The translations under genes and the position numbers were made by a program. The notes under the pieces are model-generated. The model did no database searches. It had not been told where the DNA came from and saw only the letters and a list, made by a program, of their open reading frames with translations. From Chiloscyllium plagiosum (lineage: Eukaryota): 43,095 bases of DNA. Shown piece by piece: positions 16,028 to 42,594 of the stretch (position 1 is the first letter of the stretch; each line of letters begins with the position of its first letter). Location: positions 3,285,472-3,328,566 of the forward strand of contig NC_057759.1 in the NCBI RefSeq assembly GCF_004010195.1, given 5' to 3'.

Positions 16028-19000
16028 TTTATCCTGGGCTTATTCTTGTAAATGTACTCTTGGCTCCCTCCAACACGAGCACATCCTTCCCGAAATAATG
16101 GGCCCAAAGCTGCTCACAATATTCCAAATGCAGTCTGACCAGAACTGATAGAGCCTCAGCAGTACATTTCTGCTCTTGTATTGTAGCCTCTTTGAAATAA
16201 ATGTTAAAATGGCATTTGCCTTCCAAACTGCCAACTGAACCTGCCAGTTAACCTTAAGAGAATTCCTGAACTGGACTCCCAAGGTCCCTTGCCTTTGAGA
16301 TTTCTGAAGACTTTCCCTATTCAGAAAATTAGAAACATCTTTATTCCTTCTACCAGAGTGCATAACCTCACAATTTCCCATGTTGTATTCCATCTGTCAC
16401 TTCTACGTCCACTCTTGCAGCCTGTCCAAATCCTTCTACACCCTCTGCACTTCCTCAGCACTACCTGCCCCTCCACCGACATCTATCCCATGTGCAAACG
16501 TGGTAAAAATGCCCTCAGTTCCTTTGTCCAGGTCATTAAAGCATAACGTGAATAGTTGTGGTCCCAACACTGACCCCTGTGGAAGTCCATGAGTCACCGG
16601 CTGCCATTCTGTAAAAGACCCTTTTATCCTGACTCTCTGCCTTCTGCCAAGCAGCCAATTCTCTGCCTTTACCTTGTTTAGCAGCCTGCTGTGTGGTACC
16701 TTATCAAAGGCCTTCTGGAAATGCAAATCGATTACACCCACCGGCTCTGTGTTGTCTAACTTGCTTGTTACTTCCTCAAAGAATTTGAACAGATTTGTCA
16801 GGGAAGACCTCTCCTTAACAAAGCCGTGCTGACTCTGCCCTATTTTACCATGCACTTTCAAGTGCTCTGCAGCCTCATTCTAAACAAGGGATTCTCAAAC
16901 TTTAGGAATGACTACGTTCTAGCTACATAGCCTATAGTTTCCTGCCTCTGCCCCCCCCCCCCCTTTCTTAAACACGTGTTGCATTAGCCATTTTCCAGTC
17001 ATCTGGGACCCTGCCTGACTCCAGTTCTTTCTGAAAGATCATCACCAATGCCTCTCCAATCTACTCCGCTGTCTCCTTCAGTTATCTGGAGTGTAGTCCA
17101 TCCGGTCTTGGTGATTTATCCGCTTTCAGCTTCCCAGCACCTTCCCCTTACCAATGGCCAATGCACTCACTTCTGTCCCCAGGTTTCCCTTGAAGTTCTG
17201 GTTGGTTGCTGGTGTCTTCCACTGTTAAAAACTGATGGAAAGTACCACTTCAGATCCGTGCCATGGTTCCCCATTACTACTTTTCCAGCATTGCTTTCAA
17301 GCTGTCCAATGTACACTCGTCTCTTTGTAACCGTTTCGATATCCAAGAAAATTGCCTGCAGCCCTCTTCTGTATTAGTAGCGCGCTTACTCTCATATTTC
17401 TCTTCTTTCCCGCCCCCACCTTTTTTTCTAAAAGTTATTTGCTGTTTTTTAAAGGCTTCCCACTCTTCTGACTTCCACTGATCTTTACCACATTATATGC
17501 TGCTTGTGTTGCCTTTATGCTCTCCCTGACTTCCCCTGTCAACCAGGGTTGACTCATCCTCCCCTCAGCATTTTTATTCTTCCTTGGGATGAATTTCTGC
17601 AATGTCTCCTGAATTAACCCAGAAACTCCTGCCATCACTGCTCCACTGTCTTCGCTGGTCGGCTCTCCCTTCCAATCAACTCTGTCCAGCTCCACCCATA
17701 TGTCTTTGTAGTTACCTTTACCCAATTGTAATCCCGTTACATCTGATTCAATCTTCTCTCTCTCAAGCTGCAGGGTGAACTCTATTATGTTATGGCCATT
17801 GTGTCCTAGGAGTTCGTTCACTTTGAACTCCCCAATCAAGTCTCCCTCGTTACACATCACTAAATCCAGAATTGCCTGTTCCTGAGTGGGCTCTACCACA
17901 AACTGCTCCAAACAAAAAATCTCTCAGATAATTCCAAGTTTTCTTGAGAACCGCTATGAACCTTTTTTTCCCAGTCCACCTGCATATTGAAGTCCCCAAT
18001 GATTATTCTAACAGTTCCTTACATGCTTTTATAATCGCCTGATGTATTTTCTCCCCCAAATCGTGACAATCGCTAATGGCTTGTATACAAGTTCCTTTGG
18101 GGTCTTTTTTACTTTGTGGTTCCTGATCTCTACCCTCACGGATTCTACACCTTCTGACTCTTTCGCTTCTTGCTGTCAATTTAATTTTATTTCTTGCAAA
18201 CAAGGCAACCCCTCTGACTCTGCCCATTGCCTTTTTGATAGCTTGAATAATTAGTTACCAGCCCTGAACCCCCTGCAGCCTTTTCTCTGATACCTATAAC
18301 ATTGTGAATGCCAAGTTTACTCTGGCGTACCGGCTGATTTACCTTGTTCTGTAGACCGTGTGTATTTAGTTACAAGTCCCTCAGCCCTGCATTAATTGTC
18401 CCTCTTCTCATATTTGTCCCCTTATCTGTTGTGCCTGAAGTTATATTCCTGATCCTTTCCATACTTTCTATTCTGCAACATGTTGTGAAAGCTCTAACCT
18501 GTGCTGAGCACTTCCCCATTTTGACTTTTCCATAATTTTGCACACAGCTGAAAACAACCCCCATGTTTTAGTTTAAAGTCCAATATATAGGCCCTGGTTA
18601 TGCCATTCTCCAGGACTCTGATCCCAGCATCATTCATGTGTAGCCTGTCCGATCGGAACAGTTCCATCCTTCCCTAGTACTGACTCCAATGTCCAGTGAA
18701 TTCAAACCTCCTGTTTGTCCCACACGAATCTTTCAGCCACAGACATCTTACTGTTATAACCTTGTTGACTTTATGGCTCAGGTAGTAATCCAGAGATTAT
18801 TACCTTTTTGATTTTTAAAAAATTTATCCCTGAGCTGCACATATTCATTCAGCAGAACTTCTTCCCTTGATCTGTCTATATTAACAATTGGATTGTTCCT
18901 CTACAACCCAGATAACTATCGTGAACCCAGGCACCAGGCAGGCAAATCTGCCTTCGGGACTCTCTATTCTGGCAACAGGGAAGAGTCTCTATTCCCCTGA

Positions 19001-19450
19001 CTGCATTGTTTCCGATTACACTTGCATTTCCCTTTTCCCCTTTCTCTTGAATGGCTCCCTTTCCCACAGTGCTTTGCTCATCCTCCCTACAGACCCCACA
19101 CTCATCCACACAAAGAGCAAGAATCTCAAACCTGTTTGACAAGCTGAAGGGCTGAGGCTCATTCAGCACCACCCTCTGGTTTCCTCTACCGGCCTCACTC
19201 ATAGCCACACCCTTCTATCCCTGACCACTGATCGATTTGAGGTAGTTAATCCAAGGGCTGTGACTACCCCCTGAAACAGAGCATCCAGGTAACTCCTGCC
19301 CCTCCCTGATGTGTGGCAATGTTCAGAGCTCAGACTTCAGCTCAACAATCTGAGCTGGAATCCCTCAACCAACACTTGTTATGGTTTAGTAGCTATGAAC
19401 CACAATGAGGTCCACCAGCTCTGACAAGATGCAGTTAAGACACCTCGCCT
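16028..19450 (-). mobile_element. Near full-length degenerate CR1 LINE (second subfamily), 3' truncated
   Basis: ORF1 esterase VIGNNAVRGIE..RESRRQICLPGA; endonuclease EPTQEQAILDLV; RT QHGFVKERSSLTNL, FQKAFDKVPH, GLPQGSVLGPQLF; LVRLHLEYC. Confidence 0.9.
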
Positions 19451-19734
19451 GGTCTGGCCCCTCCATTTTAATGACTTGGTGCTTAATTTGATTTTTTAAA
19501 CATTTTATGCTGAAAGAACATCCACTTTTGTTGGAGAGATTAATTGACCATGCTCAAGAGGCCAAAATTACGTTAAGTGCAGATATCTTGAAAGATTAGA
19601 GGTGGGAATGATCACTATCATAGATCACTTTCAAAAGAACGATGAGAAATTTGTTAAAATGTTACTTTTCCTCAATTTGCGACCTCTTCAAGTCAATGAG
19701 CTCAGGGTGAGGAGAACAAAACTCACTGAGTGAT

Positions 19735-20060
19735 CACACGGGCAGCGGAGTATTGGATGAGCTGAAGATTACAAGGAGGTTGAAAGTGGGAGGTGGATCA
19801 GGAGTGTGTTAGGGTTATTCAGTCTCGAGATTACAAAGGACTGGATAAGATTTCACCACCTGGAGCTGAGACTGTGTTGGAGTCAGGCCACGTTACTGAA
19901 ATGGAAATAGAACGTCACAGGGAGGATGTGGGTCTGTGGTTCAAAGCTAATCTCCAACTGTGATATTCCCTTAATGTTGTGAAGACCCTGGTTCAGACAG
20001 TTACCAGAGGGACCGATACAGGTGGAGTTAGGAAGTTTTGTAACAGGGACTGAAGCCAGC
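19735..20060 (-). mobile_element. Old L2-clade LINE fragment
   Basis: Minus strand FYFHFSNVA..EILIQSFVISRLNNPNTLL, matching the L2 motif YFHLRNIA..LIHAFVTSRLDYSN. Confidence 0.65.
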
Positions 20061-20079
20061 AGTCTTCAGTGAACAAAAG

Positions 20080-20520
20080 ATCAGGAGTAGGCCTTTCAGC
20101 TGTTCCACTATTGAATGAACTCATGGCTGCTGTGTGGAGTTCAGCCTTTGGCCCATATCCCTGAATACCTTTGTTGAACAAAAGTTTATCTGCCTCAGAT
20201 CAAAACTAACAACTTAGTGTTTGATTTCCAAACCTCTTCCACCCTTTTCATATCAAAGTTATTCCTCATATCTCTCTCGAACAGACTCTGCTCCCATGTT
20301 CTTGATTAAATTGGAGAAAGTTTCTATTCATTCAGCACTGGATGTTGGGACGTTGTGTGAGTTGGAGGGAGCTTCAAGGGAATGTTGGTCACATACACCT
20401 GCTCTGTAGTCCTTCATGGTGGCGGAAGTGGCTTTTTTGGGAGGTTATGCTCAAGGTATGGTTGAGCAGTTGGTCGATAAAACCCCTCTCATTCTCCTTC
20501 CAGCACTGTGGAATATAATG
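20080..20520 (-). mobile_element. Decayed LINE 3' fragments
   Basis: CR1-type tail AGGAGTAGGCC..TCATGGCTG..CCCTGAATACC, followed by a piece resembling 4200-4310 and 42810-42920. Confidence 0.5.
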
Positions 20521-21829: not shown

Positions 21830-21915
21830 TACTTCTGCTCTTACACCTGACGGTTTAAGCATTTTCTTTTTTGGGTTCTCACTTGTTTTGCTTTTGTTTT
21901 CAATGAACTTCATAG

Positions 21916-22520
21916 GGAATTAGAAGACGATTTGCAATGAGGAGACTTAAAAGCAGGCATCGCTTCTCAATCTGCTGAGTTTTTTGCCGCCGAAATATCA
22001 TTGGGTTTTGAAGTAAAAAAGCACCGTTCACAATGGGGGAGAAATCGTACGTGTGTTGTACATGTGGACAAGTCTTTAGCAGATCACTGCCCGTCACACT
22101 GGGGAAAGGCCATTCATCTATTCCAAGGGTGGGAAAGGATTCACTCGATTATCCATCTTGCTGAAACCCGAGCAAGTACACACAGAGAAACAGACCGTTG
22201 AAATACTCAGAATGTGGGAAATGTTTTAAAAACTCTGGGGCACTGATATCCCAACAACATCCTCACAGTGACCCTTCATGTGCTCTCATTGTGGGTGTAG
22301 GTTCAAGCTATCATCCAACCTGATTAATCACCAGCGGATCCACACTGGGGAGAGACCATTCACCTGCTCACACGATGGGAAAGGATTTTCTTATAAATCC
22401 AACCTGTTAAAACACAAGCGATCTCTCAGAATGTAGAGATTGTTCTGCTGTACTGACTGTGGGAAGAGATTCATTGTGAAATCCAAGTTGCTGAAACACC
22501 AGTGTATACATGAGAAATGA
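21916..22520 (+). pseudogene. C2H2 (Kruppel-type) zinc-finger pseudogene, about 6 decayed fingers
   Basis: Acceptor TTCATAG at 21915; [82 protein letters not shown]; frameshifts, an in-frame TAG and lost Cys/His; AATAAA at ~22728. Confidence 0.9.
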
Positions 22521-24009
22521 CAGTGCCTGGTTTTTACTGTGAACATCTCCCTGCTTCATAGTCTCATCCAGAAGATTTCATTTCAATTCCCACCTGACAT
22601 GGAGCTATGTCAAAGAACTTAATTCTTTTTGTAATTGATAACTGAATAATATCCACTCGGGCAGGTTTCTACTGACGTTGATGAACTCCAGCTCAGTTAA
22701 AGGGATGACTATTCTGGGTGACAGTGAAATAAATGCACTTTGTGTTAAACACACTGTATAAAACCTATTTCTAATTTCTAAATGCTCATTGAAGTGATCT
22801 CCCTCTGACTGTGTTATGGAAGAATCAATGTTTTGTAAAAAATTACCAGGAGACACAGAAAATCCTTCACGAAATTAAACTTCAATCTTGAAAATCAAAA
22901 CTGTGGGAGCCAGCTAAATGTCTTCCCTGGCTCCCCACAGGCTCTTTGTTCTCCTGCAACTTATACAGTTGTTCTTCCCGCGCTTATCGGGTACATTAGC
23001 ATAACCAGTCATGCTGGCTTGCTTTATCTTTCTAAACTAATCACCATCTGCCACACTGGTTCCCTCCATCACACTTAACCTATCACATTACAACCTCATT
23101 GTCTCATGTACCAGTGATTTGGCTAACCTATCACAATGCACTATCATTATCTGTTACTGGAGCCCTATAATATGATACCAGGCATGCATTACAACACTAA
23201 AATAACTACATAACTGCCAGAGTAACTTCCTTAACTGAAGGAGGAGTTGAAATTTTCTGTTGATCACATCCAGCATCCAATTTGATTCATTGTAGTCTTT
23301 CTCAATTGACCGTGTCAAAATTCTAGCTTGGTTACAGGTGTTAATAAAAAGGATAAAATTATATTAAATTATATTAAATTTGTGCTAACACTTTCTAACG
23401 TCCTTCGCACTTGCTTTTGAAATGTTTCCCTTTCTCTCTCCTCCATCTTGTAAGGAGCTCATGCAACTGCTTTGTCATTCAGATTGAGATAATCTGAGCA
23501 GCTGTCTCTTTCATGTCCCTCCTTTCCCTGAAACTGTCTCTGAAGTTCCACTTTGTCAGAATCCTGAATACTCAACTTCCTCCAGCCCCCCTCCTACCTT
23601 GGGAGCTCCTCATGTCCACGAGAACCAACTTCTCGTCTCTTGACCATTTTCCCACTCAACCTCCTCCCATCCACTGATACTGGTAACAGTTCTTGCTCTC
23701 GTCTCGTAAGGTCCCGGTCACTTTAACTCCACCATTATCATCCATCCAGTGAAAACCAATGTGGCCTCATTTCCAAACTCCCTTTTCTTTCCAAAAACCT
23801 AGAACTTGGTCACCTCCAAGGGCGGAGCCTATCCCTGGCACCTGCTGTTCTCAATCACATGACACCATGAGGTGAGCTCATCCAAAGGCATGGCATTAGT
23901 TTTCACACATCTGCTGGCATTACCCAATTCTACCTCATCAGACAACCCAATGTCTCCATTATTCCACTGTTGCTAAATTATCAGACAGTGTATTGTACAG
24001 CACTGGATG

Positions 24010-24328
24010 TTTTATTGACTTATTGAGTCACAGGATGTGGGCATCACTCGCTCATCCAGGGCAGTTAAGAGCCAACCACATTGCTGTGGATTGAGAATCA
24101 CGTACAGCAGACTGGGTATGGACAGGATTTCCTTCCTTTAAAGGACTTCAGTGTACCAGGTAGGATATTCCAACAATCAACCAGGTCATCATTAGTCTTT
24201 TAATTCCAGATTTCCATTGAATTCAAATTCCATCATCTGTCACAGTGGATATCCAAACCAGATCCCCCAAACATTACCTCGACCCCTAGTTTAATAGTCT
24301 GCCGATAATCCACTAAGCTACTGCCTCC
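24010..24328 (-). mobile_element. Shark SINE with tRNA-like head (family of 690-908)
   Basis: Minus head GGAGGCAGTAGCTTAGTGG..GAATTTGAATTCAAT; body similar to 9515-9745. Confidence 0.65.
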
Positions 24329-30708: not shown

Positions 30709-32638
30709 CTGCTAATTAAACCAAATACACGGAAAAGCTCACCTCGCCTAATAATCTATTAAAATATTAGTGACAGAGGACTACCCAAATTCCACTATTT
30801 AACACTGAAAGTGAACATTAACAACAATTATTTGCAACTCTAAGCCTCCTTTCGCTTGAAGATTTGTTATCTACCTCCCAATCTTTAACAATGTGCTGAT
30901 CCAATAAAGTCCCTATTAAATTTACAGTAACTTAATTTTCAAAACCAGCCAGTGGCTGTCATTCCCAGTGTCGATCTTCCTCTATTTGTAGATCTCCCTG
31001 GGTCATCTTCAGTCTTCGGCTGCAAAGATTACTTGGTATGTCAGGAACTAGAGGTCACAATTTCAAGATTGTCAGCAAGAGAGCGAGGAGTGAGATGAGG
31101 AGAAATATCTTTACTCAGAGTTGTTAGGATTTGGATTGTGCAGCCTGAGATCGTGGTGGAGGTATGTTTCCATATGAGGTATGAAATGAGAGCTGGATAT
31201 GTATTAGAAGTGATTAAATTAGGGGCAAAGAAGATAGGGATGGAAAACAATCCTGCCTTGAATTATTTCCAGCTCATCACAATTTAAACAAAACATGGAC
31301 AGTACATTCAATTCATTGGCTCATCTGCCTGGACTCATTCGCCAGGAGATGAAATGGATATCCAAGTTAAGAATGATCAGCATAGATCAGCATAAAATCT
31401 CAAATCTCGGCCACCAACAGTTAGATTGTGCAACAGTGGAAATAGACTGACACACTGAGGGTTGTGGAAGAGACAATTATGCAGATGGTTTCTCAAGACA
31501 AGTCCATCTTTGGAACTGATATCTTGCTGACTGAATTGAGACAAAGCCTAGCTTAGTCGCAGTAACATGCCTTCTCTTCCTTGTCCTCCTCATTTGCTGC
31601 AATGTAGGATTGCTATTGATCGATTTGTGAAGCTTCACAGGCTTTCTTTTACACTGTTCTCACGATATCAGTGCTGCTAATTAAACCAAATACACGGAAA
31701 AGCTCACCTCGCCTAATAATCTATTAAAATATTAGTGACAGAGGACTACCCAAATTCCACTATTTAACACTGAAAGTGAACATTAACAACAATTATTTGC
31801 AACTCTAAGCCTCCTTTCGCTTGAAGATTTGTTATCTACCTCCCACTCTTTAACAATGTGCTGATCCAATAAAGTCCCTATTAAATTTACAGTAACTTAA
31901 TTTTCAAAACCAGCCAGTGGCTGTCATTCCCAGTGTCGATCTTCCTCTATTTGTAGATCTCCCTGGGTCATCTTCAGTCTTCGGCTGCAAAGATTACTTG
32001 GTATGTCAGGAACTAGAGGTCACAATTTCAAGATTGTCAGCAAGAGAGCGAGGAGTGAGATGAGGAGAAATATCTTTACTCAGAGTTGTTAGGATTTGGA
32101 TTGTGCAGCCTGAGATCGTGGTGGAGGTATGTTTCCATATGAGGTATGAAATGAGAGCTGGATATGTACTAGAAGTGATTAAATTAGGGGCAAAGAAGAT
32201 AGGGATGGAAAACAATCCTGCCTTGAATTATTTCCAGCTCACCACAATTTAAACAAAACATGGACAGTACATTCAATTCATTGGCTCATCTGCCTGGACT
32301 CATTTGCCAGGAGATGAAATGGATATCCAAGTTAGGAATGATCAGCATAAAATCTCAAATCTCGGCCACCAACAGTTAGATTGTGCAACAGTGGAAATAG
32401 ACTGACACACTGAGTGTTGTGGAAGAGACAATTATGCAGATGGTTTCTCAAGACAAGTCCATCTTTGGAACTGATATCTTGCTGACTGAATTGAGACAAA
32501 GCCTAGCTTAGTCGCAGTAACATGACATTGCTATGCCTTCTCTTCCTTGTCCTCCTCATTTGCTGCAAGGTAGGATTGCTATTGATCGATTTGTGAAGCT
32601 TCACAGGCTTTCTTTTACGCTATCTCACGATATCCGTG
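30709..32638. repeat. Recent tandem duplication, two 965-bp units
   Basis: CTGCTAATTAAACCAAATACAC starts at 30709 and 31674; units nearly identical, with a few substitutions and two small indels. Confidence 0.95.
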
Positions 32639-32756
32639 GAAGGTTGACATAAACGCTTCCCTCTTCATCTTGACCTGGTTCCTCATCCCCTCCTGTATCT
32701 GTGTGCCTCAGAGTGGTATATGTGATGCAGGGTAGTTGCTGCTCTGTTTGGTCAGC
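32625..32756 (-). CDS. Terminal coding exon of a putative ITIM-bearing receptor (cytoplasmic tail)
   Basis: Long polypyrimidine acceptor TTCTTTCTACTATGTTTCTGTGTTGTCCTGTTTTCAG; 132 nt in phase 0: ADQTEQQLPCITYTTLRHTDTGGDEEPGQDEEGSVYVNLPRIS*; ITYTTL and SVYVNL fit (I/V/L/S)xYxx(L/V). Confidence 0.65.
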   Translation of the reverse strand, partial: ADQTEQQLPCITYTTLRHTDTGGDEEPGQDEEGSVYVNLPRIS

Positions 32757-32811
32757 CTGAAAACAGGACAACACAGAAACATAGTAGAAAGAAGCAGGAC
32801 CAAAAGTAGTG

Positions 32812-35212: not shown

Positions 35213-35384
35213 AATCCAGACTTTACATTATCTGCCTGCTAAAAACATAACTTTGCTGATTAAAATTTAACAGCCCTCTTTTTCACTCAAAAATAACCAC
35301 TGTCTTTCTTTCCTGATGCACCAGTGGAATGAGCTATAAATAAAAGAAAAGACATTTTACCAGCAGGACATATCTAAATGAACT

Positions 35385-36850: not shown

Positions 36851-37714
36851 AAAGAGACAGTTCAGGACAGTGAAATGACAATGCTTCTCAGGTCAATGAT
36901 GCTAGACCTAAAGTGAATGGCTCCTTGCCCCAAAGACCAAGGCCAGAAGGGGCCACTCTCAGACATTAAGCTGTTGTACTGGGGAAATCAACATATTGAT
37001 GTCCCAGGGCCTAAAATTTAGGCATGCCCTCAAAACAAGATGTCAGATAAAGCAATTAGCCATCAGTGTAACGTTTCCTCTTCCAATTCACATTGCCGTG
37101 TTGGTAATTTAGTTGACATAGATGGAACATGTCTATGATTTAGATGATTGCAAACATTATCAATTATTAATAAATTCAAAGGATGTAAAAAGATTCATGG
37201 ATCTTCACTCCATGCCATGAGCAAGAGAAACACTAATGATGTTTAAAAGTGGCTGGGTTTTTCAGGGTTAAGATAAACTGGAGAAAATCTCCACTTTCAC
37301 TGAACCAGAAATGTTATAAAAGTATATATATATTGTATTCTGTACAAGCGTTTCTTGTTTTGGAGATGATGCAAACTGAGTACACCAAACTGCTGTCTAT
37401 TTCGGAGTCATCTACAATCAAGAAACAATAAGCAAAGTGAACCGAAAGGTTAGAAATCAGAATGTTAAACCAACAGCAAACGATACCTCAAAATTAAATA
37501 CGGAATGATAATTAAGGTCACAGCCCCAATCCAGCAGGAATACAAACCTAAGCTCTTGGTTATAGATCAACCTTTTCAAAGCAGTTCATGAACCAGGTGA
37601 CTCAATAACATCAAATGGGTATTTTGCATCAACATTCACTACAAAGTTGGCAGCTCCCCTCCCAGAACAAACTCACAAAGGGAAGGTGGAGGCCCTGGGG
37701 TAAATTACATTTTT

Positions 37715-38590
37715 TTATTATTCACTCATGGCACAAGGGCATCACCCTCTGGACCCAGTGTTTATTGCCCAACTCATCCCTACTTGTTCCCTTGAGAAGG
37801 TAGAGATGAGCTGCTTTCTTAAACTGCTGCAGTCCATGTGCTGTAGATAGACATATTGAATGGAAAGTTGTCTTCAACAGTAAACAGTCAGTCCACAGTT
37901 GGCAAACAATCTGTCCCTGCTGAGTTTTTCCAACAATTTCTGTGTCTCTTTTTATTTTTGACACTCAGTGCCTGAAGAAAGCTAATGAAATGCTGGCCTT
38001 TATATCAAGAGGACTGGGGTACAAGGATGCAGAAGGGATGCTGCAGTTATACAAAACCCTGGTTAGACCCACTTGGAGCAGATCTGGGCACCACACCTGA
38101 GGAAGGATAGATTGGCCCAGGAGGGAGTACAGCGCGAGTTTACAAGAATGATACCTGGGCTTCAGGGGTTAAGTTATGTGGAGAGATTACACAAATTAAG
38201 CCTGTTCTGTCCAGAATTTACACGGTTCAGGGATGGTCTGATTGAAGATATTAACAGGAAAAGACAGGGTGAATAAACTGTTTCCACTATTTGGGGATCC
38301 TAGAAATTGGGAGGGCATAGCCGGAGAATTAGGACCAGACTGTTCAGGAGAGATGTTCGGAAGTACTACCACGCATACTGGCTGGGGGAGGTTTGGAACT
38401 CTCTTCCACAAACAGCAGGCATTGTTTTTTTTAATCAGTTGTTAGTTTTAAATCTGAGAGGTAAGTTTTTTGTTCAGCAAAGTTTTTAAGGGGATAAGGG
38501 CCAAAGACAGGTCTATGGAGTCAGGTCACAGATCAGGCATTGAATGGTGGAACAGGCTCAAGGGCCTTCTCCGTGGCCTCCTCCTGCTCC
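37715..38590. mobile_element. LINE fragment (-, 37715-37850), PLE-tail remnant (37890-37965) and CR1 3' part (+, 37965-38590)
   Basis: TTTATTGCCC..CTTGAGAAGG; CCTGCTGAGTTTTTCCAACAATTTC; WAPHLRKD..EGVQREFTRMIPGLQGLSYVERL. Confidence 0.7.
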
Positions 38591-39654: not shown

Positions 39655-40028
39655 NNNNNNNNNNNNNNNNNNNNNNNNNNNNNNNNNNNNNNNNNNNNNN
39701 NNNNNNNNNNNNNNNNNNNNNNNNNNNNNNNNNNNNNNNNNNNNNNNNNNNNNNNNNNNNNNNNNNNNNNNNNNNNNNNNNNNNNNNNNNNNNNNNNNNN
39801 NNNNNNNNNNNNNNNNNNNNNNNNNNNNNNNNNNNNNNNNNNNNNNNNNNNNNNNNNNNNNNNNNNNNNNNNNNNNNNNNNNNNNNNNNNNNNNNNNNNN
39901 NNNNNNNNNNNNNNNNNNNNNNNNNNNNNNNNNNNNNNNNNNNNNNNNNNNNNNNNNNNNNNNNNNNNNNNNNNNNNNNNNNNNNNNNNNNNNNNNNNNN
40001 NNNNNNNNNNNNNNNNNNNNNNNNNNNN
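39655..40028. other. Assembly gap (N run)
   Basis: Run of N. Confidence 1.
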
Positions 40029-42052: not shown

Positions 42053-42313
42053 TTGATTAGATTAGATTACTTACAGTGTGGAAACAGGCCCTTTGGCCGA
42101 ACAAGTCCACACCGACCCGCCGAAGCGCAACCCACCCAGACCCATTCCCCTACATTTGTCCCTTCACCTAACACTACGGGCAATTTTAGCATGGCCAATT
42201 CACCTGACCTGCACATTTTTGGGCTGTGGGAGGAAACCGGAGCACCCGGAGGAAACCCATGCAGAATGCTGTTTGAAGTTGCTAACCACCTCACTTAACT
42301 ACCTGTGCCACCG
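42053..42313 (-). mobile_element. HE1-type V-SINE with internal deletion/rearrangement
   Basis: GATTA-repeat tail, GGAGCACCCGGAGGAAACCC, then a jump to GCTAACCAC..CTGTGCCACCG. Confidence 0.85.
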
Positions 42314-42594
42314 GGAACTGCTCGAAGAATCAGCTGGAGAAAATAAGAGAGAAAGAACATTGGAAAGTTTCACTGCAAATACTCAGCTTCTCCTGCTAGC
42401 AAATGAATCTGGATTCTTTGACTGATGCGCAAGCAACAACTATTCCAATTTTAATCTTTAGTTTATAGCTGTGCTGACCATTCCTCTGAACACAACACAT
42501 TACTTTGTATGTCTCCCCAAGTAATTTCATCTGCCACTTGCTCAACCTGCCCACACCCTCAGAAAGCACGTTCCAAAATAGTGCTTTATTTCTT

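Follow-up and report, generated by a model that had tools for sequence, protein, structure and literature searches.

The locus analysed here is a stretch of 43,095 nucleotides of Chiloscyllium plagiosum (the window), and the question that it raises is whether a short stop-terminated frame on its minus strand ends a working inhibitory receptor gene. An earlier note, made from the letters alone, had taken this frame for the last exon of an unannotated receptor with two ITIMs in its cytoplasmic tail, transcribed from right to left. Homologous shark receptors bear out both this direction and the place of the exon at the end of an Ig-superfamily receptor gene that carries ITIMs. As for the working gene, we are highly confident that the exon closes a 5′-truncated, multiply broken duplicate of a five-Ig FCRL-like gene, a headless pseudogene fragment that very likely yields no protein.

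The terminal exon and its tyrosine motifs

Inspection of the sequence confirmed a minus-strand polypyrimidine tract with a TTTTCAG acceptor that ends at 32757, together with the stop-terminated 43-aa frame that had been claimed; the acceptor and the phase of the exon are real (Table 1). The phase-0 frame (32756-32628) reads ADQTEQQLPCITYTTLRHTDTGGDEEPGQDEEGSVYVNLPRIS and is closed by a TGA at 32627-32625, and its two tyrosines are indeed 23 aa apart. The tandem duplication on its 3′ side consists of the units 30709-31673 and 31674-32638.

Table 1. Features of the receptor copy in the window (window coordinates; a dot marks features without strand)
Feature	Position	Strand	Remark
Last coding exon (43 codons, then TGA) of the dead FCRL-like copy	32625..32756	-	Homology, spliced contig
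Polypyrimidine tract + AG acceptor, intact, phase 0	32757..32790	-	Position as in the intact gene
ITYTTL, consensus ITIM	32709..32726	-	I[T/I]YATL in intact genes
SVYVNL, distal tyrosine motif	32640..32657	-	N(V/I)YAN(L/V) in intact genes; S private to the window copy
Tandem duplication, 965 bp, 96.7% identical	30709..32638	.	Spans the stop codon and the 3′ UTR side
Cytoplasmic exon c3, 32 nt	35302..35333	-	Phase-0 GT donor lost, AG instead
Cytoplasmic exon c2, 66 nt, upstream ITIM	37346..37411	-	Reads LVYSVC; the intact gene has LLYSVV
Junction of a ~630-bp deletion removing cytoplasmic exon c1c	37854..37860	-	Comparison with paralogue B
Assembly gap, 374 N, probable place of cytoplasmic exon c1b	39655..40028	.	
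Cytoplasmic exon c1, 31 nt, splice sites intact	42303..42333	-	

Taken alone, the pair of motifs is at chance level. Of 100 dinucleotide shuffles made from the window, 42 held two ITIM-consensus motifs spaced 15-30 aa apart and lying within 45 aa of a stop (mean 0.52, observed 2). The second motif meets the ITIM consensus because of the private substitution N34S alone, which places a serine two residues before the distal tyrosine in one of the 30 aligned copies; the intact genes have N at this position, and the double-ITIM character of the terminal exon is limited to the window copy. YxN is a Grb2-type motif, and the distal NxYxNL/V of the intact genes, judged from its sequence, appears to fit such a site better than an ITIM. 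The reality of the exon rests on homology and splicing, not on its motifs.

On the one hand, the exon matches the C-termini of RefSeq proteins from four carpet sharks. It is identical in 36/43 aa to P0024, the C. punctatum-type second gene, and in 29/43 to P0008; with 34/43 in Hemiscyllium, the window tail is nearer to this second intact gene than to the intact gene of its own assembly (29/43). An intact orthologue of the second (P0024-type) gene was sought in this assembly and not found. The 43-aa peptide gave no family in a Pfam search, and a protein database search returned one candidate, none significant, which is weak evidence. On the other hand, the junction into 32756 that the earlier note had called for was encountered in one assembled contig, whose status as RNA is a guess. 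This contig matches 32455-32756 with 47 of 302 bases different and, at exactly 32756, continues into the upstream exon c3. Past this point it agrees in 28/30 bases with c3 of the intact gene versus 23/30 with that of the window copy, which makes the observed spliced product one of the intact-gene type. The base that the window carries at 32747 occurs in no contig; the runs are of undeclared species, and this is hence not a sign of silence. Raw single-cell reads had zero depth over the exon in ~2% of one run, which is no evidence either way.

An intact relative and the FCRL-like assignment

An intact relative lies on the same scaffold (C50, 8.08 Mb) at ~2.503-2.531 Mb, ~0.8 Mb from the window copy, and is complete: behind a two-exon leader come five Ig exons of the C2 type, one TM exon and a tail of six exons. 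It is the gene of the RefSeq 'PECAM-like' protein of C. plagiosum (XP_043539736), with which its fifth Ig exon agrees throughout. The tail carries a consensus ITIM two exons upstream of the end (LxYSVV/I), IxYATL in the terminal exon and the distal non-consensus NxYxNL/V; the cytoplasmic ITIM-type tyrosines looked for in an FCRL/FcR gene are thus present as LLYSVV and IIYATL, with three further tyrosines. Both terminal-exon tyrosines are kept in the full-length relatives examined, as I(T/I)YATL and N(V/I)YAN(L/V), in agreement with the conservation in related sharks that had been proposed as a check. By analogy with ITIM biology, clustering of the intact receptor by its ligand would let Src-family kinases phosphorylate LxYSVV and IxYATL, and these sites would then recruit SHP-1/SHP-2 and damp signalling in B cells or myeloid cells; the distal NxYxNL/V, which is conserved, would act as an accessory Grb2-type SH2 site. 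In the TM exon of the intact C. plagiosum gene (L115), a mutation has hit the upstream acceptor on which the X1 isoform of the zebra shark relies, and the RefSeq model takes a downstream AG that gives a shorter stalk.

The family, which the earlier note had held to be beyond assignment without the ectodomain, can be assigned. Against solved structures, the intact protein matched FCRL5 (E 1.9e-49, collinear over residues 14-437), FCRL4 (2.9e-19) and Fc-gamma-RI (6.8e-19). By domain, Ig2 was best matched by D2 of Fc-gamma-RI, Ig3 by FCRL5, FCRLA and D3 of Fc-gamma-RI, and Ig4 and Ig5 by FCRL5, so that best matches and collinearity place Ig2-Ig5 in the FcR-subtype order D1-D2-D3-D4/5; Ig1 is uninformative alone and is placed by position only. 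From these comparisons the family is FCRL-like, and not Siglec, CD300, SIRP or PECAM1; among the candidates listed beforehand, the FcRL type is the one that held. PECAM1 has six Ig domains; the intact gene has five Ig exons, no PECAM1 chain was found among its nine structure matches at E 1e-8 or better, and this identity was rejected. Siglec/CD22, CD300 and SIRP, which have an N-terminal V-set domain, were likewise rejected: Ig1 of the intact gene is a short domain that was matched by the Ig_2, Ig_3 and ig models but by no V-set model, and CD22 gave only a weak match to the Ig domains.

The signal peptide of the intact gene is split over two exons (40 coding nt and a 30-nt exon, both phase 1). 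The second leader exon of FcR/FCRL genes is 21 bp in the part of PMC7940838 available to us; it is 30 nt in the intact gene, which is therefore filed as FCRL-like and not as a strict member. According to the accessible portion of PMC2413239, the 30/21 leader rule is followed by only a fraction of Xenopus FcR-like genes. The intact shark gene thus resembles human FCRL5, FCRL4 and Fc-gamma-RI in its Ig2-Ig5 matches and split leader, and differs from human FcR/FCRL in the length of the second leader exon (30 versus 21 nt). Among six FCRL3/5-like RefSeq proteins of frog, ray and catshark (P0027-P0032), five have tails in which a distal NxYxN(L/F) comes after an ITIM-type motif, like the shark gene (P0027, P0028 and P0030-P0032, from catshark, ray and one frog; not P0029, nor P0033 and P0034); the six are 26-31% identical to it over Ig1-4, and most have longer ectodomains.

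The family is already annotated in RefSeq, and the window copy is a dead copy of it; the term 'unannotated' stands for this copy as far as tested and falls for the family. Relatives are named Fc receptor-like 2 to 6 in Hemiscyllium, Stegostoma and C. punctatum. The carpet-shark models include C. plagiosum XP_043539736/40, H. ocellatum XP_060712749-52 and XP_060710971, S. tigrinum 'Fc receptor-like protein 2/4' and C. punctatum 'Fc receptor-like protein 2' XP_072420101. The window copy is like them in its terminal exon (29-36/43 aa), upstream tail exons, Ig4 and Ig5. Unlike the window copy, these models are open and, save for the partial XP_060710971, of full length, whereas the window copy is without leader, Ig1-3 and c1c and is broken in Ig4, Ig5 and the c3 donor.

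Other genes share the region. On C50, at ~1.48, 2.90, 3.85, 4.14, 4.90, 6.14, 6.98 and 7.07 Mb, lies a second subfamily of FCRL-like genes that shares 35-50% identity with the first; most of its Ig exons are open, and it has a homologous tail with both tyrosines. Histone H1, C2H2 zinc-finger and other Ig-receptor genes are neighbours in the receptor region, and histone H1-like and C2H2 zinc-finger frames (two of them near-identical, with 13 fingers) are interleaved with the receptor copies (L024-L025, L043, L038-L039, L047). A three-Ig plus TM gene 41-59 kb to the right of the window, in L017 (1000-8220) and L018 (~9000), was considered as the ectodomain and rejected, since it runs away from the copy on the plus strand and is of another family. 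Two of the Ig exons of this separate receptor gene are frameshifted, while the third is open and has ~7 copies at 74-100%.

Lesions of the window copy and spread of the headless unit

The window copy had no leader, no open ectodomain exons and no in-frame splice path to the tail. Exons c1 and c2 retain their GT/AG sites. The c3 donor was the sole phase-0 donor before the terminal exon, and with its loss c3 is unable to feed the terminal exon in frame; of the remaining two phases at the terminal acceptor, one runs straight into a stop and the other yields a peptide of 15 aa that lacks both motifs. Exon c1b, whose expected place is a gap in the window, is frameshifted in the two closest sister copies fetched. 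Following the gene 5′, as had been advised, led to remnants of Ig4 and Ig5, both broken, and to an assembly gap at the TM position. To the right of the window end are a 1311-N gap at the expected TM exon site, where the sister copies carry a TM exon, a stop-bearing Ig5 remnant at +1.3 to +1.4 kb, a frameshifted Ig4 remnant at +2.7 to +3.0 kb and a 164-bp CpG-island remnant at +3.5 kb. Ig5 has a TGA before its first Cys. Ig4 has lost its acceptor (AG to GG) and contains a 1-bp insertion, deletions of 10 bp and 7 bp and two stops. No match to the leader or Ig1-3 was found in the 200 kb fetched upstream of the copy, and what lies upstream of the dead Ig4 is a LINE followed by a degraded provirus, read by eye.

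The degraded endogenous retrovirus, with paired terminal repeats, occupies ~5.5-14 kb to the right of the window (L013-L014), and is common to the window copy and the two closest sister copies fetched. Within the window, 16478-20513 and 21833-24058 have no match in the fetched paralogous regions, and the former holds decayed LINE reverse-transcriptase frames.

The exon had been described as lying in a non-repeat island, which does not hold. A DNA search of its own genome gave 41 matches at 75-100% identity, 29 of them on the scaffold of the window (a lower bound, with 40 candidates scored), and a protein search with the tail gave 39. A match to a repeat consensus had been named as grounds for refutation; the exon is multi-copy, but the amplified family is a segmental-duplication family and not a transposon. 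Of 31 loci given, 30 copies of the terminal exon were aligned and one failed to align; the acceptor, both tyrosines and the open frame are retained together in seven of the 30. Over 29 copies the alleles comprise 35 synonymous, 103 non-synonymous and 8 nonsense changes, with a pN/pS of 0.96, a rough figure in which distinct alleles were counted against the majority codon of a 129-nt exon.

The ectodomain exons are unevenly represented. Genome-wide, with all candidates scored, Ig2 has six close copies (>=65% identity) among 15 matches and Ig3 six close loci among 25 matches, versus 55 pieces at >=58% among 75 matches for Ig4 (150 of 253 candidates scored) and 59 matches for Ig5. Lesions of Ig4 were compared with the intact gene in 31 copies, namely the window copy, one sister and the 29 best-scoring other loci. 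The same 10-bp deletion is common to 25 and the same Tyr-to-stop change (Y71-stop) to 21 of the 31 copies, and only one has an open Ig4. Because these lesions are common to many copies, sequencing error is ruled out and the unit was broken before its spread. Five other copies on C50 that keep 5′ Ig exons (~1.46, 2.97, 4.12, 4.87 and 7.03 Mb) all have stops or frameshifts. One headless unit with an island piece lies on a different, 56-Mb scaffold (G000:C24:7432662-7446621).

These patterns suggest a history in which one rearrangement would have cut a gene copy ~0.3-0.5 kb upstream of Ig4 and placed a CpG island there. The 10-bp Ig4 deletion and the Tyr-to-stop change would then have been fixed in the headless unit, which may have been copied some forty times through segmental duplication, for the most part within one 8-Mb scaffold, with the copies probably decaying neutrally thereafter.

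The CpG island, alternative readings and meaning for the family

The 5′ edge of the amplified headless units is marked by a ~600-bp CpG island (full form L228:8510-9190). It has at least 36 matches at >=94% identity, and its copies are 95-99% identical over most of its length versus 85-92% in the adjoining DNA. In 105 pairs of 15 copies the pairwise distance is 0.016 in the island versus 0.118 beside it (~8 times less diverged), and 0.012 versus 0.112 in the same copies without CpG-type sites. The piece left in the window copy (L013:3480-3643, ~480 bp upstream of the dead Ig4) has 27 matches at 95-100% among 41, and over the 431 bp next to it other copies agree at 68-89%. The island contains words that we take to be YY1- and BANP-like, and its fold z-scores are -2.5 and -1.1. 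More distant island relatives (73-85%) are found on C4, C37, C48 and small contigs.

It is possible, though in our judgement unlikely, that the window copy is dead as a protein gene yet transcribed within a non-coding RNA, be it from the CpG island, from the neighbouring LTR or by read-through, with the island as the selected core that carries the dead tail along. The far lower divergence of the island than of its flanks and its many close matches point in this direction, as does its absence from the intron of the intact gene, where it was looked for. However, the island of the window copy is cut down to 164 bp, with its CpG core deleted and a LINE in place of its donor side, and the donor-like sites of the island face away from the FCRL remnant. 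No Rfam family was matched, no downstream gene of the island was found in the stretches fetched, and gene conversion would leave the same pattern without any function; promoter selection and gene conversion both fit the conservation. A similarly doubtful proposal is that the forty-odd dead tails are passengers of a shark 'core duplicon', in which an island promoter fused upstream of Ig4 would be the selected unit, driving RNAs that would have spread together with it over an immune-gene scaffold, and the intact member of that scaffold would be a genuine orthologue of FCRL, older than bony fish. Primate core duplicons (LRRC37, NPIP) are described, in the parts of PMC3530683 and PMC7419210 available, as a conserved core common to interspersed duplications on one chromosome. 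The analogy extends to the CpG island only, and the shark island is known from its sequence, with no transcript or gene attached. The amplification of dead receptor halves could find its explanation in the conserved island.

A far smaller chance remains for a working, unannotated inhibitory receptor that ends in this exon, with its ectodomain in gaps or far upstream. Its terminal exon is open, the acceptor and both tyrosines are intact and c1 and c2 keep GT/AG, all of which runs against the dead-copy reading, as do the position of the TM exon and c1b within unsequenced gaps (1311 and 374 N) and the closer match of the tail to the second intact gene than to the one in this assembly. Nevertheless, both sequenced Ig exons are broken, the in-frame donor is gone and leader and Ig1-3 are absent from the 200 kb upstream; moreover, the upstream gaps of the unit measure at most 1311 bp and coincide with the TM position of the sister copies. 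The working receptor is already largely refuted by these findings. A chance open reading frame in a repeat, to which the chance-level motif pair and the multi-copy nature of the stretch would lend themselves, has a negligible probability and is already refuted by the RefSeq C-termini of four carpet sharks, the collinearity of the exon with the other exons of the gene and a contig spliced exactly at its acceptor.

The broken FCRL-like duplicate thus stands as the preferred reading, and the window locus is an ordinary pseudogene, though the family to which it belongs is interesting. As one more dead duplicate, the exon is of little consequence, although such dead copies will confound read mapping and annotation of the receptor locus. 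The family matters more. Cartilaginous fishes are said to lack FcR-like molecules in the accessible parts of a 2014 survey (PMC4016189) and a 2026 review (PMC13337447), and bamboo-shark B cells express fcrl3, fcrl5 and fcgr1a-like genes according to the available part of a single-cell study (PMC11372145). Our literature search, with subscription journals mostly outside its coverage, returned no paper describing the shark FCRL-like cluster. With the domain-by-domain match of the intact gene to FCRL5 and Fc-gamma-RI, how sharks read antibody Fc becomes testable, a point that belongs to the intact gene and is already implied by the RefSeq names.
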